IMG/VR virus record: IMGVR_UViG_3300029319_000001
Source of the DNA: a virus
Taxonomy: Duplodnaviria; Caudoviricetes
Length of the DNA: 64,000 nt
Direction: 5' to 3' (one strand)
The translations under genes were made by a program, and so were the position numbers. Under the pieces are notes generated by a model that was given only the letters and a program-made list of their open reading frames with translations, was not told the origin of the DNA and made no database searches. Shown here piece by piece: positions 18,264 to 33,410 of the stretch. The number at the start of each line of letters is the position of its first letter. The first letter of the stretch is position 1.

Positions 18264-19364
18264 ATGCCCACTTATTTACAAGGTGGCGAACAAACTACCG
18301 TCAACTCAACAATAACAGAATTATTTCCTGCAATCGCCTTCAATAGTAAGAAAAAAATTACTACTGCTGAGGAGATGCAGGATTTTATTACTGAAGCAAA
18401 GTTGACTTCTCAGAATGCTAAGAAATCTTTTGTTAATGATAGTAATATTAAATCTGCTGAAAAGTATATAACAATGATGGAAAGTATTAGACCATCAATG
18501 AGAACTACTAAGTTAGAAAATGCTGTTGGAATAAAAAAATGGTTAGATGAATATAGTCATCAAAGATTAATTGATAAAGTTGTCTGGGGATACAGAGAAA
18601 AACCACAAGGAGTTCCTGAGAATCATGCAGGAGATATATTTGTATATTTTAAAGACAAAACAACTCTTCCAAAAATTTTAGGAGTTAGTTTAAAAGCAGG
18701 AACTGAGAAATCTAAAGAACCAAAGATGAATTCCTATGTTGGTTCTAGTCTTAGAAAACCATGTTTTATGGATTACTTTCCAAAAGCATTACCACAATTA
18801 AAAGACGAGTTATGGGATAAAGTATACTCTAAAGTTCCTAATCTTCCTAAAGAAGTTACTAAACAAAACTACTTAACCTTAACAACTAACAGACAAACTC
18901 CTCATCCTATACTAAAAGAGAAAGTTTTATTGATGTTTAAGTATCAAAATAGGATGTTCGAGGAATTATATAAAGAGATGAATCTAGTTTGTAGAAATAA
19001 ATTTATCTCAATGATCAATAACAATACTTATGGTTTGAACTTAACTAAGCGATGGATAATGGAAGAGTTCAATTTACCAAAAGACAATGCAGAGGTGCCT
19101 CTAGTATTAGTCAAAGCAGTTGGTATAAAAGCAGAAGCTCAACTAGCATCTGTAAAAGATTTTCTCCCTGCAGTTAGTAAAGTTAAAGCATACTTGAAGA
19201 TAAATTCTGTTCAAGAGTGGTTTATTGATTTAATGGGAGATAATAACCACAAAATAACACTACTAATGACAATAAGAAGTGACTCAGAATATAGAGAACA
19301 GAAACAAAAAGGTAAACTTGGTGCATATACTATGCTAAAATTATTATATCGTGGTGCTAAGTGA
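18264..19364 (+). CDS. hypothetical protein, possible PD-(D/E)XK nuclease fold
   Basis: ITELFP...HAGDIFV...GVSLKAG. Confidence 0.45.
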   Translation: MPTYLQGGEQTTVNSTITELFPAIAFNSKKKITTAEEMQDFITEAKLTSQNAKKSFVNDSNIKSAEKYITMMESIRPSMRTTKLENAVGIKKWLDEYSHQRLIDKVVWGYREKPQGVPENHAGDIFVYFKDKTTLPKILGVSLKAGTEKSKEPKMNSYVGSSLRKPCFMDYFPKALPQLKDELWDKVYSKVPNLPKEVTKQNYLTLTTNRQTPHPILKEKVLLMFKYQNRMFEELYKEMNLVCRNKFISMINNNTYGLNLTKRWIMEEFNLPKDNAEVPLVLVKAVGIKAEAQLASVKDFLPAVSKVKAYLKINSVQEWFIDLMGDNNHKITLLMTIRSDSEYREQKQKGKLGAYTMLKLLYRGAK

Positions 19365-19370
19365 AATTAT

Positions 19371-19982
19371 ATGTCTTATCATGATATTTTTCCGACTAGA
19401 ATTTACAAATACAATCTAGATGTTACAGACTTGAAAGCATATATGCTTGATAGATATAATTCATACAAGGATCATTCTGTTAACGAGACTCCTAGTGGAT
19501 GGAATTGTAATGTAAGAACTGAATACGATAGTGCCTTCCCTAAACATTTGAAAGAGTATTATAATACTGTTTTACGACAATTTAAGGAGGATATTGGTTT
19601 AAAACATAGACCATTTATCGATGAGATCTGGATGAATGCCTACGAAGAATCTCATTTCCAAGAACCTCACTCTCATTTACCAGGATTTTTTTCTGCAGTG
19701 CATTATATTTGTTATGATTCTAAGGTTCATAGTCCTACAGTATTTCTAAATCCTCAGATGGATGTATATTCTTTTATGTTTGATGATAATTTTATGGATG
19801 TTCAAAAGAACCATCATTTAAAAGAGAGTGATCAATTTGATGTTGTAGAAGGAGATTTAATAATTTTTCCATCACATTTAAAACATTTTGTTAATAAAAA
19901 TAATACCAAAAATCTTCGTATGACTATATCATTCAATATAAATAAAATTGCAGAGGATACTAGAAGGGTGTTTGCTCAATAG
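19371..19982 (+). CDS. 2OG-Fe(II) oxygenase (TIGR02466-like)
   Basis: IWMNAY...QEPHSH...EGDLIIFPSHLKH...RMTISFN. Confidence 0.82.
   Translation: MSYHDIFPTRIYKYNLDVTDLKAYMLDRYNSYKDHSVNETPSGWNCNVRTEYDSAFPKHLKEYYNTVLRQFKEDIGLKHRPFIDEIWMNAYEESHFQEPHSHLPGFFSAVHYICYDSKVHSPTVFLNPQMDVYSFMFDDNFMDVQKNHHLKESDQFDVVEGDLIIFPSHLKHFVNKNNTKNLRMTISFNINKIAEDTRRVFAQ
19937..19944 (+). promoter_or_regulatory. T4-type late promoter
   Basis: exact TATAAATA, 39 nt upstream of ATG 19984. Confidence 0.65.
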
Positions 19983-19983
19983 C

Positions 19984-21195
19984 ATGAAGAATTTTGCTCA
20001 ATTTTTAACTGAAGCTCAGACTAACGCAGCAAAGCAAGCATCAAAGCTTGGTTTGACTGGGGATGGTCATGGTGCTTGGTTAGATCCTAACGGTAGAATC
20101 GTAGGTCGTACTATAGATGGTGAATTAGTTTTTAATAGTGGTCGCAAACCAGCACAAGAAACTGATCCTACTAGACCAGGTATGGCTGCTCGTGGTGTTG
20201 TTCCTGATCAAGGTCCACCTGCTGTACCACAAGCACAACCAGAAGAAGAACCAGCAGAGCAAGAACCAGTAGAAAAAACTCGTGGTACATTAACCATTGG
20301 TTTTGGAAGATTTAATCCACCTACTGCAGGTCATGAAAAACTTCTTAGCAAGATTGCAGACACAGCAGAAGAAGGAGAGTACACAATATATCCATCACAC
20401 TCAGTAGATCCGCAAAAGAATCCACTCGACACTGAGGAAAAGGTTCTTTTCATGAAAAAATTATTCCCAGATCATACCAATAATATTGTATATGATCCTT
20501 CAGTTCGTACTATATTCGATGCGTTATCACAAGCCGACACACAAGGGTACTCCAGCATTAATATCGTTGTTGGTGCTGACAGACAGAAAGAGTTTGAGGG
20601 GATCGCAAACAAATACAATGGGCAACTCTATAATTTTGACGCGATTAATGTTATTTCCGCAGGGGAAAGGGATCCCGATGCTGAAGGTGTCGAGGGCATG
20701 TCTGCTTCCAAACTACGAGCGTTAGCAGCAGATGGAGATTTTGAAGGATTTAAGAAAGGTTTACCTAAAGCTGCTAAAGGTATCGTAGCAAGAGAATTAT
20801 TTAATACTGTACAAAAATCTATGGGTACTGCTGCCAAGACTGAAGGTGTAGAAATGTGGCAGATTGCTCCTAAACTTTCAGGAAATACGCTAAGAGAAAT
20901 ATATCTTGATAGAAAATTATTTGACATAGGAAGTCTAGTAGAAAATTTAAACCATGGCTTAATTGGTAGAATAGTTCGCAGAGGTGCAAACTATGTCATA
21001 GCAGTGACTAATGAAGGAATAATGTTTAAATCTTGGATAAAAGATTTGAGTGAATATGTAACTAGAAGACCTGTCTCTGGTGTTCCTGCATCTAAGAGAG
21101 GAGTGGGTACAGACTCATATCGTGCCTATGTACAACAACTAACCCCATTAGAGAAGGTTAAGTCGTTTATAAATAACTCTAAGAAGACAGCGTAA
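19984..21195 (+). CDS. cytidylyltransferase-like (HxGH superfamily) nucleotidyltransferase
   Basis: GFGRFNPPTAGH, VVGADR, MSASKLR; N-terminus MKNFAQFLTE. Confidence 0.85.
   Translation: MKNFAQFLTEAQTNAAKQASKLGLTGDGHGAWLDPNGRIVGRTIDGELVFNSGRKPAQETDPTRPGMAARGVVPDQGPPAVPQAQPEEEPAEQEPVEKTRGTLTIGFGRFNPPTAGHEKLLSKIADTAEEGEYTIYPSHSVDPQKNPLDTEEKVLFMKKLFPDHTNNIVYDPSVRTIFDALSQADTQGYSSINIVVGADRQKEFEGIANKYNGQLYNFDAINVISAGERDPDAEGVEGMSASKLRALAADGDFEGFKKGLPKAAKGIVARELFNTVQKSMGTAAKTEGVEMWQIAPKLSGNTLREIYLDRKLFDIGSLVENLNHGLIGRIVRRGANYVIAVTNEGIMFKSWIKDLSEYVTRRPVSGVPASKRGVGTDSYRAYVQQLTPLEKVKSFINNSKKTA
21168..21175 (+). promoter_or_regulatory. T4-type late promoter
   Basis: exact TATAAATA upstream of ORF 21216. 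Confidence 0.65.
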
Positions 21196-21215: not shown

Positions 21216-21932
21216 ATGAGTAACATTGATGAAACCGCTAAGACATTAATACTGAATACTATTCAGAATGTCTTTACAGAATCCGCAATCGAGGAACCGA
21301 TTGTAGAGGAAACTCCTGCTGAAAAATTACGCAGAGAGGTTGCTGAAAAGATTGCTCATGATTTGCAAGAGAGAAAAGAAGCAACTAAGATGTATAAGTC
21401 TGGTGACGCTACAACTTCTGATGAAAAAGAATCAACAATTAAAGAAAAGAATATAAAGAATACTATTACAATCAATCCAACTATTGAAGAAGAGATTGCA
21501 CAGTTGTCAGAAAAGCAAATGGTTGTTACCAATGCAGACAAGGTTGGCAATACACCAGCATACAAGAATTTTAAGAAAGGTATAAAAGGTAAAGATGGTA
21601 AACCTTTATATGTAGCAGCAGATCATTTAAAAGATGAATATGAGCATCATCAGAAAGATAAAGATGGTAATACAATACCACATGAAGATGAGATAGCACA
21701 GGAAAACTACCGTGCAATGAGAAATCCTGAGTCACAGAAAGATCCAGATGAATCTGATAAACCATATCATAAGAGATCAAAGGCAGCAAGGATGAGAGAT
21801 CCTAAGAGAGGAATCAACTCTCCAGCATTCAAAGAATTCATGCGAAAACAAGGTTATGGGGAATCGTATAATCCTAAAGCAGCATTAACAGAGAGTACAT
21901 GGTTAATGTACGAAAAAAAAAAAATTAGCTGA
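21216..21932 (+). CDS. Lys/Glu-rich probable internal head protein, 5' part of a frameshifted gene
   Basis: highly charged modular sequence; ends just after an A12 run. Confidence 0.6.
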   Translation: MSNIDETAKTLILNTIQNVFTESAIEEPIVEETPAEKLRREVAEKIAHDLQERKEATKMYKSGDATTSDEKESTIKEKNIKNTITINPTIEEEIAQLSEKQMVVTNADKVGNTPAYKNFKKGIKGKDGKPLYVAADHLKDEYEHHQKDKDGNTIPHEDEIAQENYRAMRNPESQKDPDESDKPYHKRSKAARMRDPKRGINSPAFKEFMRKQGYGESYNPKAALTESTWLMYEKKKIS

Positions 21933-21993
21933 AGCAAAAGTAGATAAGGGTAGATCTGATTACGGTAAGGCATCTATAAGAAATTATAGAAGA

Positions 21994-22380
21994 ATGGGTC
22001 CTGGTCATGGTGATCCTGGTATGTTTGATCCCAGTGGTAAGAGAGGAAAAACTATTGAGAAGCGTAGAGAAGAACACAAAGCAAGGAGAGGTGTAAAAGG
22101 AGCAAAGGTTCCAGCATATAAGAGAGAAGAATATATTCCAGAAGAAGGATATGATCATATCAAAGATCGTATCGCAATGGCAGGTGGTGATCCTAGTTCA
22201 CCAAAGAAAAAAGATGCAACCAAGTATCCACCTCAAAGATCAAAATCAAAAGGTAAAACTGTTTATCAAAAAGAAGCAGAAAAAAAATACGGTAAGGGTG
22301 TAACTGCACTAGATATTGTAAAGAAAAACATCACCGCCAAGCACGGTAAAGGTGCAATCATGGATACAAAGAAAAAATGA
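21994..22380 (+). CDS. basic probable internal head protein, 3' part (frame open from at least 21925)
   Basis: the frame extends upstream as LAEAKVDKGRSDYGKASIRNYRR to the A12 run. Confidence 0.6.
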   Translation: MGPGHGDPGMFDPSGKRGKTIEKRREEHKARRGVKGAKVPAYKREEYIPEEGYDHIKDRIAMAGGDPSSPKKKDATKYPPQRSKSKGKTVYQKEAEKKYGKGVTALDIVKKNITAKHGKGAIMDTKKK

Positions 22381-23297
22381 AAAAATTATCCAACTGGCGA
22401 GAAGAAAAGAGAGATGAGTATGGAGATCTCATAGGTGGTCCTAAAATCTCAAAGAAACAACTCAAGAAAAATCTTTCAAGTAATGAGAAAGATGAAAAAA
22501 TTACAAGAAGTGAATCTACAAAATGTGGTAAAGGAGAATACTTCTGTAATGATAGTCAGAAGTGTAAACCAATACCAGAGGGTTATCATGTAATGCCAGA
22601 TGGTATGTTGATGAAAGGTAAGAAACATAGTGTTAATGAAGTAGCACCTCCTACTGCAAAGCATGAGAGAATGGTAAAGCACATTAAAAAATCCTATAAA
22701 AAAGATGGTAAGTTAAGTGATGATGAGAAATCAATTGCTTATGCTACTGCATGGAAAAACTATAATAAAGAAGAAGTAATTCATGAGATTGCAATGAAAA
22801 AAGATAAGAAGATTCCTCTTGGAAGAAAGAGTAATCCTTATGGAAAACGAGCAATCGCAAAAATGATTATAAAATCACTTGCTGAACCAGCAAGAGCAAA
22901 GGCAGGTGTAACAAAAGAAGACTACATTGATGAATTAAGTAAGTCTACATTGGCAAGTTACATTGAAAAAGGTGCTAGAGATATTGCAGGTAAAGCAAAT
23001 GATGCTAGTATTAAAGGTATGTCAGGAAAGAGAAAGGAAGCAGATAAAGGATACGAGAAGACAGCAAAGAGAGTTAGGGGTGTCAGTAAAGCAGGATACA
23101 AACTAGCTTTAAAAGAGATGACAAGTTATAAAGACTTCATAAAATCAGCACAAGCAGCGAGGGACAGAGTGAAAAAGAAACAAGAAGACAAGAAAAAGAA
23201 AGATGCTCAGTACTCAGATATGAAGAAGCGTGGCATCAAATTCTATGATAAAAAAGGATCAGGTAGATTGGTTGGTGGTAAGAAAAAATATGACTGA
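22377..23297 (+). CDS. Lys-rich modular probable internal head protein
   Basis: repeated (I/L/V)xE junctions; a small CxxGxYFC...CKP module. Confidence 0.55.
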   Translation: MKKLSNWREEKRDEYGDLIGGPKISKKQLKKNLSSNEKDEKITRSESTKCGKGEYFCNDSQKCKPIPEGYHVMPDGMLMKGKKHSVNEVAPPTAKHERMVKHIKKSYKKDGKLSDDEKSIAYATAWKNYNKEEVIHEIAMKKDKKIPLGRKSNPYGKRAIAKMIIKSLAEPARAKAGVTKEDYIDELSKSTLASYIEKGARDIAGKANDASIKGMSGKRKEADKGYEKTAKRVRGVSKAGYKLALKEMTSYKDFIKSAQAARDRVKKKQEDKKKKDAQYSDMKKRGIKFYDKKGSGRLVGGKKKYD

Positions 23298-23325
23298 TAT
23301 ATAGTAATAGCATATTACATTAATC

Positions 23326-23514
23326 ATGACTAAATTTTTACTACCTATTGCTATCAATATCATAGACAAAGCAGTAGACAAGATCCCAGAAGATCTAGAA
23401 GGCAAAATCAAGGAGTTTGTTATTGGACTTCTCAAGAAAGCTGCTGCTAAATCAGGCAACAAAGTAGATGATCAACTAGTAGAAGCACTAGAGAAAGCAC
23501 TATTAGGTTCTTGA
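23326..23514 (+). CDS. small helical hypothetical protein
   Basis: 62 aa ORF. Confidence 0.65.
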   Translation: MTKFLLPIAINIIDKAVDKIPEDLEGKIKEFVIGLLKKAAAKSGNKVDDQLVEALEKALLGS

Positions 23515-23517
23515 GTT

Positions 23518-23525
23518 TATAAATA
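23518..23525 (+). promoter_or_regulatory. T4-type late promoter
   Basis: exact TATAAATA, intergenic. Confidence 0.75.
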
Positions 23526-23558
23526 ATTGTAAGCAAATTGTAGTTCGGGTGTAAAAAC

Positions 23559-24062
23559 ATGGCTCTGTGGGGCAACAATGATAACATTGCTACTTTCGGT
23601 ACAGTAGCAGTTGACGGTACAACCGTCACAGGTACTGGTACTACCTTTACATCCGATGTGACTGTCGGACAGGTAATTCGAGTAGGAGCAAGAGGCGGAG
23701 TCGGTACTTATTACGGCGATGCAGTAATCACAGGTATAACCAGTGACAGAATATTGACAATTGATACAACCGCAGGGTTGAGTACAACATCAGTTGCAAC
23801 AACAAGTTACTATATCAGTGAACTTCCTAAGAGTTCAGTGCTAGATAGTGTATATCAAGAGGATCGTTCAGAATATGATTCACTTGTTTATGGTATATCA
23901 ACTGAGACATCAGGTTCCTATCATGTAGGACATCAGGGATGGGTTGGTGTACAAACATATATTGATATGCATGGTTCACTAAGAGTAAAATCAGAAACTC
24001 TAGTTGCTATGTCTGGTATTTCTACAGGTGCTAACGGTATTGCATATCCTACTGACGAATAA
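23559..24062 (+). CDS. probable virion structural protein
   Basis: MALWG start, Thr/Gly-rich beta character, late promoter. Confidence 0.6.
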   Translation: MALWGNNDNIATFGTVAVDGTTVTGTGTTFTSDVTVGQVIRVGARGGVGTYYGDAVITGITSDRILTIDTTAGLSTTSVATTSYYISELPKSSVLDSVYQEDRSEYDSLVYGISTETSGSYHVGHQGWVGVQTYIDMHGSLRVKSETLVAMSGISTGANGIAYPTDE

Positions 24063-24082
24063 ATAAATTATTTCATTTTATT

Positions 24083-24454
24083 ATGAGATTTGATGAACTG
24101 AATGATAGTAACTATCTCCTTTTCGCTATAAAAAATTATGAAAATCCTCAGGCAGTAACTGAGGATGATTTTTATGATGATTTAAAACGAATCAAATACA
24201 TTAAGAGACTACTGAAACGATACAAGAATAGTGGAGAGCTAAGAACTCATCTGATTCTTAATCATTTCATAGTCCTTTTTAATGTCTTTGGAGATGCAGG
24301 AGTGCCTTTACTATTTTTTAAGTTGGATAAGGAACTATGGTCTTGTACCAAGAGTTTCCTCTCTTATCTCGGTAGGATACCCGAATATCCCTCCACTGAA
24401 CTAAATAATATTGTTGATGATAATTATTGTCTAGAACAATTACGAGATATCTAA
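24083..24454 (+). CDS. conserved T4-like myovirus hypothetical protein
   Basis: FAIKNYENPQ...DLKRIKYIKRLL...LILNHFIVLFNVFG; AATAAATA at 24058. Confidence 0.75.
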   Translation: MRFDELNDSNYLLFAIKNYENPQAVTEDDFYDDLKRIKYIKRLLKRYKNSGELRTHLILNHFIVLFNVFGDAGVPLLFFKLDKELWSCTKSFLSYLGRIPEYPSTELNNIVDDNYCLEQLRDI

Positions 24455-24663
24455 TGGATCGTCGCCTTGCTAGGATCATTAAACTTATAAAAGAAGAGAT
24501 GGTCGGCAATGCAGTCGGGCAGAGTGGTGGATTTGGATCTAAAGCAGATGCAAAAGGACCAGTTGCTGGTTATGATAAAGGTCTCGGTAAAAAGAAAAAA
24601 GACAAAAAACCTTTGAAACGATATTTGTACGGTGGTGCAGGGTCTAGAAAACGATGGATGTAA
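24454..24663 (+). CDS. small basic Gly-rich protein
   Basis: LIKEE-MVGNAVG...PVAGYD; TAATG coupling. Confidence 0.6.
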   Translation: MDRRLARIIKLIKEEMVGNAVGQSGGFGSKADAKGPVAGYDKGLGKKKKDKKPLKRYLYGGAGSRKRWM

Positions 24664-29639: not shown

Positions 29640-30050
29640 ATGAAAATAGAATTTGAAAAACAATTCGGTAAAGGTACAGATCCTTGGTATGCAAAGGCAG
29701 AGAGGTGGGTTAAGAAGAAATTTAGAAATCCATATCTACAACACCTTGCATTAGGATTTGTTGCATGGTTGAAAGAAATTTGGATTGAGGGTAAAATTAA
29801 AATGGAAATGTCTAGTGTAGATAAACAAGTTGAAGATCTTCATGAACTCTGGGATGAAGAAGAATCCAACAAGAGAATGGATGTCATAGGACAAAATGGC
29901 AATCTAGGAATACATTATTCAAAATCAGAAGTAGATGGTTTAAATGACATGAGTATAGGAAGAGTTGGAGAATTGCAATGGGACATTGAAGAAATGAAAA
30001 AAGCAATAGTAGATGCTGCTGACGACTATGATAAGTATGTCGGTGGATAA
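29640..30050 (+). CDS. hypothetical protein
   Basis: 136 aa ORF. Confidence 0.6.
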   Translation: MKIEFEKQFGKGTDPWYAKAERWVKKKFRNPYLQHLALGFVAWLKEIWIEGKIKMEMSSVDKQVEDLHELWDEEESNKRMDVIGQNGNLGIHYSKSEVDGLNDMSIGRVGELQWDIEEMKKAIVDAADDYDKYVGG

Positions 30051-30077: not shown

Positions 30078-30557
30078 ATGAAGACATTTGCAGAATTTAT
30101 GCTAGAATGTTCTCTAGTTAAGGAGAGTAGTCTAAGCCGAATAAAAAGTAAATCTGATAAGGGAGGCATGGCTGTCCTCTCAGCGACTCGTACTGGTAAA
30201 TCTTCCAAGGAAAATAGAGCAAGAAATAAACAATTAGATAAAGATATTCGTGGTCGTGGTCTTCCTGGTCCTACGAAAACGAAAGGTAAATGGGAAGGAG
30301 GAAGTGAACGCAGTCATGTTGTTTCTTCTGGGAAGAAAGGTAAGAGAAAGTTTAAGAAAGAAATTAAAAAGTTAGGTAAAAAGTATAATCAGGATGCAGT
30401 TATTGTTCAGACTAAAAAGAATGCTACACTAAGTGCAACCAGAAAGGGTGGATTGGGTAATAAGAAGAGAGTAGGTATAGGCAAATTTAAACCCCAAGGT
30501 AAATCACCAGAGGGTGTAACACAAATCAAAGGAAAAACATTTACTTATGAAAAATAA
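30078..30557 (+). CDS. basic protein with T4 internal-protein-like N-terminus
   Basis: MKTFAEFMLE; very Lys/Arg-rich. Confidence 0.7.
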   Translation: MKTFAEFMLECSLVKESSLSRIKSKSDKGGMAVLSATRTGKSSKENRARNKQLDKDIRGRGLPGPTKTKGKWEGGSERSHVVSSGKKGKRKFKKEIKKLGKKYNQDAVIVQTKKNATLSATRKGGLGNKKRVGIGKFKPQGKSPEGVTQIKGKTFTYEK

Positions 30558-30783
30558 ATCTTACGACGACTCTAATTGGAGAGAGGAGTACAAAAGTTAC
30601 ACAACCAATAAGAGATACCTAGAACTACTAGAGAATGGTCCTAAACAACTATCTCAGGCATGGGTATTGCAAGCATTACATAACGAGTGGAAGAAGATTA
30701 AGGGTTATTCAGACGATTATTCGGATGAAAATACAGGGCAACTTCAATCGTCATTTAAAGATTGGAATGCTAGAGTCGAATAA
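30547..30783 (+). CDS. hypothetical protein
   Basis: 78 aa ORF. Confidence 0.65.
   Translation: MKNKSYDDSNWREEYKSYTTNKRYLELLENGPKQLSQAWVLQALHNEWKKIKGYSDDYSDENTGQLQSSFKDWNARVE

Positions 30784-30811: not shown

Positions 30812-33410
<2,599 letters not shown>

Follow-up and report, generated by a model that had tools for sequence, protein, structure and literature searches.

Why would a phage gene look like a string of short, unrelated units? The question is raised by three lysine-rich open reading frames (ORFs), here called A, B and C, at positions 21216-23297 of a 64,000-nucleotide (nt) stretch of viral DNA (IMG/VR record IMGVR_UViG_3300029319_000001; "the window" below means this whole stretch). 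The window is that of a T4-like Prochlorococcus/Synechococcus myovirus, an ocean cyanophage; T4-like cyanophages are among the most abundant viruses of the ocean. An initial annotation, made from the letters alone, took the encoded proteins to be modules joined at recurring (I/L/V)xE motifs and proposed that they are precursors cut by a protease during head maturation. What it saw is partly confirmed below, and its interpretation is partly supported. A, B and C are real, lysine-rich, mosaic ORFs, their modules are exchanged between genes and phages, and a subset of these modules keeps a hydrophobic-x-Glu motif at its N-terminal edge.

Three lysine-rich mosaic proteins

The ORFs and the modules recognized within them are as follows (aa, amino acids; a slash follows the Glu of a candidate site).

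21216-21932, plus strand: ORF A, 238 aa, conserved in many marine metagenome contigs
21216-21512, plus strand: ORF A residues 1-99, acidic (net charge -9), starting MSNIDE/T and holding 9 of the 10 [ILV]xE sites of A
21513-21638, plus strand: ORF A module VTNADKxGNTPAYxNFKKG...AADHLKDE, aa 100-141, with QLSE in front
21705-21854, plus strand: ORF A module NYRAMRNPE...GINSPAFKEFMRKQG, aa 164-213, with IAQE in front
21925-22380, plus strand: conserved coding sequence of ORF B, LAE/AKVDKGRSDYG..., started at its first ATG (21994) in the ORF list
22377-23297, plus strand: ORF C, 306 aa, 22% Lys, its start overlapping the stop of B (ATGA)
22521-22622, plus strand: ORF C Cys-containing beta module, aa 49-82, CGKGEYFCNDSQKCKPIPEGYHVMPDGMLMKG, with no conserved hydrophobic-x-Glu in front
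22632-22775, plus strand: ORF C module VNE/VAPPTAKHERMVKHIKKSY...WKNYNK, aa 86-133 including the hydrophobic-x-Glu edge
22779-22925, plus strand: ORF C module IHE/IAMKK...NPYGKRAIAKMIIKS, aa 135-183
22926-23108, plus strand: ORF C module IDE/LSKSTLASYIEKGARDIAGKANDASIKG..., aa 184-244
23109-23294, plus strand: ORF C module LKE/MTSYKDFIKSAQAARDR...FYDKKGSGRLVGGKKKYD, aa 245-306

The three proteins contain 13-22% Lys, and B and C carry net charges of +22 and +38, with +3 to +13 on individual segments of C. Pfam searches with A, B and C, whole or as single modules, returned no family, and the PHROGs matches were to unnamed families only, again piecewise. An AlphaFold2 model of ORF C (mean predicted local distance difference test score, pLDDT, 75) shows a small beta module at residues 54-80, helices at 94-107, 115-142, 157-175, 180-211 and 219-285, and a confident C-terminal beta unit at 287-305; pLDDT is 84-91 in the Cys module and 95 in the C-terminal beta hairpins. 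Foldseek found nothing in the PDB for this model at E<=0.001, and in BFVD it found cyanophage relatives only.

Module exchange between genes and phages

Do the units move independently? The initial annotation had supposed that modules shuffle between genes and had proposed module-by-module searches across cyanophages; these bear it out, and module order does vary. When ORF C was compared by tblastn with 50,697 phage records, 37 matched, none over more than 28% of C, and the matches fell on four different parts of C and on proteins at differing genome positions. ORFs A and B likewise matched piecewise, as did the 1027 relatives of ORF C recovered by an HMMER scan of 1.84 billion representatives. 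The TNADK module of ORF A has piecewise matches in P-TIM68, P-RSM4, Syn19 and ORF89 of S-SCSM1, and homology to ORF B begins at the LAE/AKVD junction in P-RSM6, P-RSM1, AG-345-O18 and AG-345-E15. For ORF C, aa 21-90 and 88-133 match PHM2_112 at 60-63% identity by BLAST, while PSSM4_160 matches over 275 aa (28%) and again at aa 11-54 (65%). A search of the S-SCSM1 genome with ORF C found nothing.

The order of the shared units differs among these proteins: ORF C reads RDEYGD, Cys, VAPP; PHM2_112 has a VAPP-like module before the Cys module; and in PSSM4_160 the Cys module comes first and RDEYGD follows some 270 residues on. In one 538-aa protein of P-RSM6, encoded beside the small terminase, the LSKSTL module of C comes straight after the B module. 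Single modules also occur as genes of their own, among them PSSM4_157 of P-SSM4 (the NYRAMRNP module) and three other relatives (P0121, P0137 and P0140), and one relative (P0123) is missing the VAPP module exactly between SVNE and IAM. At the DNA level there are patches of 140-200 bp with 83-94% identity to P-RSM6, P-HM2 and P-RSM1 within otherwise unmatched DNA; the IDE/LSKSTLASYIEKGARDIAGKANDASIKG module, for instance, has a 94% identical patch in P-RSM6, and two patch ends coincide with the SVNE and LAE joints. Because matches are piecewise, order is changed, modules stand alone and nucleotide patches are isolated, these comparisons show that modules of 20-65 aa are exchanged between genes and between phages. 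In other cyanophages the same pool of modules lies beside the small terminase gene, together with small ORFs that bear leaders.

A second lysine-rich modular protein is encoded in the window at 30812-32404 (530 aa, with AATAAATA at 30779). It draws on the same module pool: two of its segments, one ending ...PNCV, recur in proteins of P-RSM6, P-RSM4 and P-HM2. It has 18 [ILV]xE sites against 9.4 expected.

A hydrophobic-x-Glu motif at module edges

All eleven joint strings cited in the initial annotation can be found in the sequence, with qualifications. VFTE and IAQE have the hydrophobic residue at P4 rather than P3 and so do not fit (I/L/V)xE strictly; KLAE-A appears only when ORF A is read into the +1 frame at its terminal run of adenines (21913-21924); and LIKEE-M belongs to a separate small gene (24454-24663). 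QLSE, IAQE, KLAE, SVNE, VIHE, YIDE and ALKE sit at module boundaries defined by comparison, and at the boundary sites the Glu, and mostly the hydrophobic residue at P3, is kept in relatives whose upstream sequence is unrelated. VFTE and ALTE are conserved among close relatives only. The sites in the window with comparative support are thus QLSE/K (at a boundary, weakly conserved), IAQE/N, LAE/A, SVNE/V, VIHE/I, YIDE/L and ALKE/M.

How regular is this association? The residues preceding recognizable module starts were gathered from about 290 family proteins and distinct upstream contexts were counted. The motif [ILVMF]xE stands directly in front of the VAPP-type module (C aa 86-133) in 65 of 66 contexts, and hydrophobic-x-Glu directly in front of the LSKSTL module (C aa 184-244) in 25 of 25, of the AKVDKG module of ORF B in 8 of 9 and of the IAMKK module of ORF C in 4 of 4. 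The NYRAMRNP module of ORF A has Glu at P1 in all 20 contexts and a hydrophobic residue at P3 in 16. The association is looser for the TNADK module of ORF A (hydrophobic-x-Glu no more than five residues upstream in 17 of 27 contexts) and for the LKE/MTSYKDFIKSAQAARDR module (Glu just upstream in 14/14, hydrophobic-x-Glu within five residues in 9/15). Ten control anchors taken from module interiors were never directly preceded by the motif. It also stays when a module becomes a gene of its own: MINE/VAPP, MNLNE/VAPP and MTELSE/VAPP are the beginnings of many stand-alone genes, and the leader MNLNE/MTLNE is common to three unrelated modules.

Two further tests were made. In the first, which is less hand-picked than the module anchors, the start Met of family members was mapped onto larger members; the motif, with its Glu 1-7 residues downstream, was found at 48% of mapped starts and at 14% of random positions. 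After collapse to about 140 clusters the rate was 22% against 14±3%; we therefore take the effect to be real, though limited to a subset of modules. In the second, the motif with Glu at residues 4-7 occurred in 26% of family N-termini and in 8% of those of other ORFs in the same genomes (Fisher p=3e-6), gp21 (MKLITE) and gp22 (MSSIDE) being among the positives of the background set. A generic profile of BLAST breakpoints gave about 1.5-fold enrichment; it is biased, since alignment ends fall on identical residues, and was not relied on.

The initial annotation also stated that T4 gp21 cleaves after Glu in (I/L)xE contexts, in agreement with the published specificity (L/I-x-E; PMC9026906). The cyanophage P-HM2 keeps ...AVLTE/APTN in gp23 at the position of LTE/A of T4, its gp21 starts MKLITE, and its scaffold protein gp22 has 20 hydrophobic-x-Glu sites; by homology, cyanophage gp21 would share the T4-type cut specificity. 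The conserved motif at the N-terminal edge of several unrelated modules, not all of them, is consistent with cleavage at the joints.

A conserved two-frame arrangement of A and B

ORF B is annotated from an ATG at 21994, and yet its conserved sequence begins well upstream, in a different frame from that of ORF A. The two frames meet at one feature.

21913-21924, plus strand: run of twelve A (A12), soon followed by the stop of ORF A (TGA 21930-21932), with the conserved +1 frame running on into ORF B

From 21907 onward the +1 frame is open; ahead of its first ATG it encodes KKKKLAE/AKVDKGRSDYGKASIRNYRR, and no ATG, GTG or TTG occurs in it from the stop at 21904 to position 21993. When the window was compared with a relative about 80% identical to it (L014), all changes in the +1 frame upstream of 21994 proved synonymous. 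Both frames are thus under purifying selection, and they meet at a slippery run, an arrangement conserved across lineages, two of which have no start codon there. Among 19 sequences (the window and 18 metagenome contigs), 17 have the out-of-frame layout, and these fall into three lineages. A12 is present in all 11 sequences of the lineage of the window (the window and 10 independent Tara contigs), and in the two further lineages, of three contigs each, the run is A11 followed by TCTAGG or TCTAGC. Since the layout is kept across contigs and three lineages, the frame split is not a one-off sequencing error. Rare variants put the frames in register: A11 in contig L021, giving a fused protein of 380 aa (P0004), and A10 in L022, giving one of 339 aa (P0019). 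In one lineage an ATG precedes the run in the +1 frame, giving MKKKNLAE/A, so that fusion there is perhaps not obligatory. Slippage, or variation in the length of the tract, probably yields both A and an A-B fusion.

Late-promoter boxes, virion links and targeting leaders

When would these genes be expressed? The motif NATAAATA, the consensus late promoter of cyanomyoviruses (PMC2984593), occurs 15 times on the coding strand of the window and not at all on the other. Six copies stand 24-48 nt in front of genes, namely the cytidylyltransferase gene, ORFs A, E and F (E and F are described below), and the ORFs at 30078 and 30812. Two of the boxes, and the gene that precedes ORF A, are:

21168-21175, plus strand: late-promoter-like box TATAAATA, 48 nt upstream of the ORF A start
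19937-19944, plus strand: late-promoter-like box TATAAATA, before the cytidylyltransferase gene
19984-21195, plus strand: cytidylyltransferase/NMNAT-like enzyme (Pfam PF01467, phrog_395), with the leader MKNFAQFLTE/A

The late transcription that had been proposed for these genes is thus supported by motif. The heptamer ATAAATA likewise has 15 copies on the coding strand and none on the opposite strand, 10 of the 15 being no more than 80 nt upstream of an ORF start.

The locus lies between cytidylyltransferase and DUF7207 genes, in a block whose content is different in every cyanophage examined. Head genes are not within the window, so what points to the head? The leader of the cytidylyltransferase closely resembles MKTYQEFIAE/A of the T4 internal proteins (IPs) IPII and IPIII; its N-terminal pattern MK[NSK][FL]xxF[LF]xE[AT] is kept in 10 of 10 cyanophage homologs, and orthologs were detected in the virions of S-SM1, S-SCSM1 and S-SZBM1 (PMC3037559, PMC9602691, PMC9146016). 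ORF89 of S-SCSM1, the protein that shares the TNADK module of ORF A, is a virion protein by mass spectrometry. In AG-345-E15 (L008), a lysine-rich protein of 454 aa with the leader MKTFEQFTE/G contains ...VQVDE/AKVDKGRSDYG..., that is, the B module behind a leader of the T4 type. Through such neighbors and mosaic relatives (PMC3037559, PMC9602691, PMC9146016) packaging of A, B and C in the head can be predicted.

Small ORFs with canonical T4-type leaders occur beside lysine-rich modular genes elsewhere. In S-SZBM1 (L037, 4821-5635) two of them, next to the equivalent lysine-rich gene, start MKSFKSFLSE/S and MKTFKQYITE/A; such ORFs, in S-SZBM1 and in P-SSM4 (L003, 4201-4791), also include MLSFKAYLAE/K. 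The overall distribution suggests that cyanomyoviruses have two internal-protein loci, one by the small terminase gene gp16 and one downstream of the cytidylyltransferase gene.

The window itself has another lysine-rich ORF of this kind, at 30078-30557 (159 aa, 21% Lys; GATAAATA at 30046), with the near-textbook T4 capsid-targeting leader MKTFAEFMLE/C. It matches Pfam PF23780, an S-adenosylmethionine (SAM) lyase family (61.8 bits against a cut-off of 28), and on these grounds may be a packaged, injected SAM-degrading anti-restriction enzyme.

One internal module, starting MTSYKDFIK, had been read in the initial annotation as a captured capsid-targeting leader. Inspection revealed that it is part of a widespread module, [ST][YF][KRQ]x[FY][MI]...QAARDR...FYDKKGSG, which is always internal, and never N-terminal, among the family members examined. 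Since it is internal in these, and since some relatives read TSLKNEII in place of MTSYKDFIK, capture of a leader is not shown; the segment also has no Glu at leader position 10, which T4 needs for processing. We accordingly dropped this candidate.

Weighing the explanations

A, B and C may be hypervariable, late-made, basic precursors of head cargo that are processed at some joints by a gp21-type protease. We adopt this as our working explanation, with a confidence that falls somewhat short of even. On this explanation 21216-23297 would be a late operon for two or three lysine-rich "bead-string" proteins (A, B and C), in which most B would arise fused to A, by a +1 shift at the A12 run. The proteins would consist of ten or more short modules (20-65 aa each) that recombination moves between genes and phages. 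They would be produced late and would enter the prohead core along with the neighboring leader-bearing cytidylyltransferase; the protease would then cut after Glu at some joints and trim short N-terminal leaders; and the small basic pieces would remain with the packaged DNA and might reach the host with it. A more ambitious version, which we think unlikely as a whole, is a combinatorial cassette system in which a shared pool of mini-modules with their own protease edges supplies a small number of late precursor genes, string length is set by a poly-A slippage tract, and a phage-specific set of small basic proteins, released by the head protease, is packaged alongside the DNA and enters the host, as a rapidly reshuffled DNA-condensing or anti-defense arsenal.

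A number of findings weigh against our working explanation, and most of them give room to one of two alternatives. The stronger alternative, possible and in our view on the doubtful side, is that these are mosaic basic proteins, associated with the virion or with DNA, that remain uncut between modules and at most lose a few N-terminal residues; hydrophobic-x-Glu would then be a structural or linker element borne by the module, such as a helix start. The motif is a short one, over-represented across the proteome in general. For [ILV]xE, ORF A has 10 sites against 4.0 expected (ratio 2.5, shuffle p=0.002), ORF C has 6 against 2.9 (ratio 2.05, p=0.06) and ORF B has one or two against about one (ratio 1.1). 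Among all 69 ORFs of at least 100 aa in the window, however, the ratio has a median of 1.27 (standard deviation 0.69), A ranks 4th and C 9th, and an ordinary enzyme, the 2OG oxygenase, reaches 3.1. These ratios are unexceptional, so motif frequency alone does not single out A, B and C; a frequency no higher than expected for Glu-rich sequence was among the outcomes that the initial annotation had named as refuting its proposal. Its picture of modules joined at recurring motifs survives as far as the modularity, which is real, and the edge-specific conservation in a subset. The coincidence of xE sites with module boundaries, too, holds for five module types and seven sites in the window, and not for the Cys, HHQKD and INPK modules, which have no such motif. 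The start anchors, moreover, were picked after the data had been seen, and the motif could simply belong to the conserved sequence of each module; the enrichment at mapped starts after clustering is modest; and in the ORF C model the candidate cut sites lie in predicted helices, E88 alone being in coil. Against a mere linker, five unrelated modules follow the same pattern (invariant Glu, variable middle residue, I, L, V or M at P3), the pattern is retained where nothing but a start Met precedes it and a linker would be needless, and anchors inside modules never show it.

The second alternative, which strikes us as improbable, is that the proteins are late but unpackaged and act in the infected cell (they might coat or condense DNA of the phage or of the host, or bind RNA), and evolve by module exchange under pressure from the host. 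Their high positive charge would suit such a role, as would the position of the genes in a replication and nucleotide-metabolism region. A, B and C have no canonical N-terminal targeting leader: A starts MSNIDE and C starts MKKLSNWREE, and the strict leader pattern M..[FYWL]..[FYW][ILMFVT].E, applied to ATG-started ORFs of at least 40 aa on both strands, fits only the ORFs at 19984 and 30078 in the window. S-SZBM1_194, which has a B-like module, is missing from the virion list of S-SZBM1, with the qualification that lysine-rich proteins are poorly seen after trypsin. A further point against our working explanation is that SSM1_115 of S-SM1, a member of cluster T4-GC119 seen by mass spectrometry, has no BLASTP match to A, B or C at E<=0.01. 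Arguing for the head instead are the virion proteins among the neighbors and mosaic relatives, the B module found behind a T4-type targeting leader in a relative, and the same module pool lying beside the small terminase gene with leader-bearing small ORFs in other cyanophages.

That the motifs are coincidence in fast-evolving, low-complexity Glu/Lys-rich sequence and the A/B split an assembly error is an idea already disfavored and scarcely credible: the weak count statistics and the roughly 1.5-fold breakpoint enrichment agree with it, whereas the module-anchor counts and the N-terminus statistics (p=3e-6), the A12 run in 11 sequences, the out-of-frame layout in two further lineages with different flanking bases and the purely synonymous changes in the +1 frame upstream of the first ATG do not.

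What would follow if the working explanation is right? Detailed knowledge of internal head proteins, and of the leaders that a protease removes from them, is limited to coliphage T4. Should cutting at the joints prove real, the capsid cargo of T4-like cyanophages could be recognized by a simple sequence rule: a hydrophobic-x-Glu module edge together with a T4-type leader on neighboring genes. This would account for many lysine-rich genes, now labeled "hypothetical", in two hypervariable loci; existing virion mass-spectrometry data could be searched for concrete peptides; and the locus would illustrate how proteins evolve by exchanging units much smaller than an ordinary domain.

Neighboring genes

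The order of ORFs in the window is a DNA polymerase-size ORF, uvsX, gp41, MazG, 2OG oxygenase, cytidylyltransferase, the variable block, DUF7207, DUF7201, gp61 primase and nrdA, so that the A/B/C block sits between gp41/MazG and gp61/nrdA. This layout is collinear with those of P-SSM4, P-SSM2, S-SM2, Syn19, P-RSM4 and S-SM1 and of several Tara Oceans contigs, and the position of the A/B/C genes downstream of the cytidylyltransferase gene is as in P-SSM4. Two genes upstream of the cytidylyltransferase gene is a 366-aa ORF (18264-19364). In S-SCSM1 and S-SZBM1 mass spectrometry identified a protein of 444-457 aa, encoded next to the cytidylyltransferase, as part of the virion; it is a candidate homolog of the 366-aa ORF. 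Four small ORFs follow ORF C.

23326-23514, plus strand: ORF D, 62 aa, a conserved small protein (phrog_402) whose position equals that of T4-GC424; not lysine-modular
23559-24062, plus strand: ORF E, 167 aa, Gly/Thr-rich (phrog_3086), with TATAAATA upstream at 23518-23525
24083-24454, plus strand: ORF F, DUF7207, with AATAAATA upstream at 24058 and the conserved N-terminus M[RIK]F[DN]E/LN
24454-24663, plus strand: ORF G, 69 aa from the ATG at 24454, small and basic, MDRRLARIIKLIKEE/MVGN...GPVAGYD...KKKKDKK

The slot of ORF E is occupied in relatives by virion proteins, namely the "virion structural protein" Syn19_178 and T4-GC425; BLAST gave no direct link between ORF E and T4-GC425. ORF G, directly upstream of the DUF7201 gene and the primase gene gp61, keeps its I[KR]EE motif in two relatives (L007 and L008). 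It resembles the N-terminus of Syn19_180 (T4-GC426, marked as virion-detected in the table of Sullivan 2010) and matches the N-terminus of phrog_696, "major head protein" (E=7.8e-6). The GPVAG[YF]D that follows I[KR]EE resembles the start of mature gp23 (GAVDGFDP in P-HM2). A role for ORF G as a capsid-protein mimic was considered from the PHROG match and the short GxVxG[FY]DP motif and set aside; BLASTP of ORF G against the N-terminus of P-HM2 gp23 gave no alignment.

Comparison with known systems

T4 already provides a case of head-internal proteins processed by a protease. The bead-string architecture of A, B and C, with sites borne by the modules, appears undescribed in the literature that we searched, and the search found no papers on internal head proteins with protease-removed leaders in cyanophages. 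In the giant phages phiKZ and SPN3US, the prohead protease processes many proteins inside the head, at a short motif of the x-x-Glu type (PMC5694885, PMC7411985). These phages belong to another group and their proteins are unrelated in sequence to A, B and C; they are not described in this work as strings of interchangeable mini-modules.

The A/B junction is comparable to slippage-prone homopolymer tracts (transcriptional slippage, poly-A ribosome sliding, phase-variable tracts) in that an A11-A12 run lies where two conserved frames meet, and in that natural variants in run length fuse the frames. Unlike the established examples, the frame change here is predicted from DNA sequence.

Among cyanophage proteins a close comparison is with T4-GC119, a cluster of hypothetical virion proteins that is marked as virion-detected and whose gene usually adjoins that of the small terminase, gp16 (Sullivan et al. 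2010, PMC3037559). Its members PHM2_112 and PSSM4_160 share the Cys, VAPP-like and RDEYGD modules with ORF C, and CPXG_00114 of P-RSM6, in the T4-GC119 slot, carries the B and LSKSTL modules. The relationship with A, B and C is local and mosaic, with changed order, rather than end to end.

The T4 core proteins gp22, gp67 and gp68, which gp21 cuts at many sites, also have several hydrophobic-x-Glu sites per chain. ORF A residues 1-99 are acidic, have nine such sites and start MSNIDE, which resembles the start MSSIDE of cyanophage gp22. A comparison of ORF A with P-HM2 gp22 gave two short collinear matches, a weak lead at E of about 0.02 in a database of four sequences, and a tblastn search of the phage collection with ORF A residues 1-100, at E<=5, yielded chance matches only. 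Unlike the core proteins, most of A, B and C is strongly basic, and the genes are hypervariable rather than conserved.

A further parallel is offered by the T4 proteins IPI, IPII, IPIII and Alt, from which the prohead protease gp21 removes a capsid-targeting leader. IPs receive a single N-terminal cut, whereas A, B and C string together several modules and have their candidate sites at the joints inside the chain; they also have no canonical leader of their own and no sequence homology to the T4 IPs. Like the IPs, A, B and C come from a T4-like phage locus that is hypervariable, have L/I-x-E candidate cut sites and are predicted to give small basic products; the T4 IP description "small, basic, in a locus varying between related phages" fits them. 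The neighboring cytidylyltransferase, moreover, bears a near-textbook leader of the IP type, and relatives place the same modules behind such leaders.

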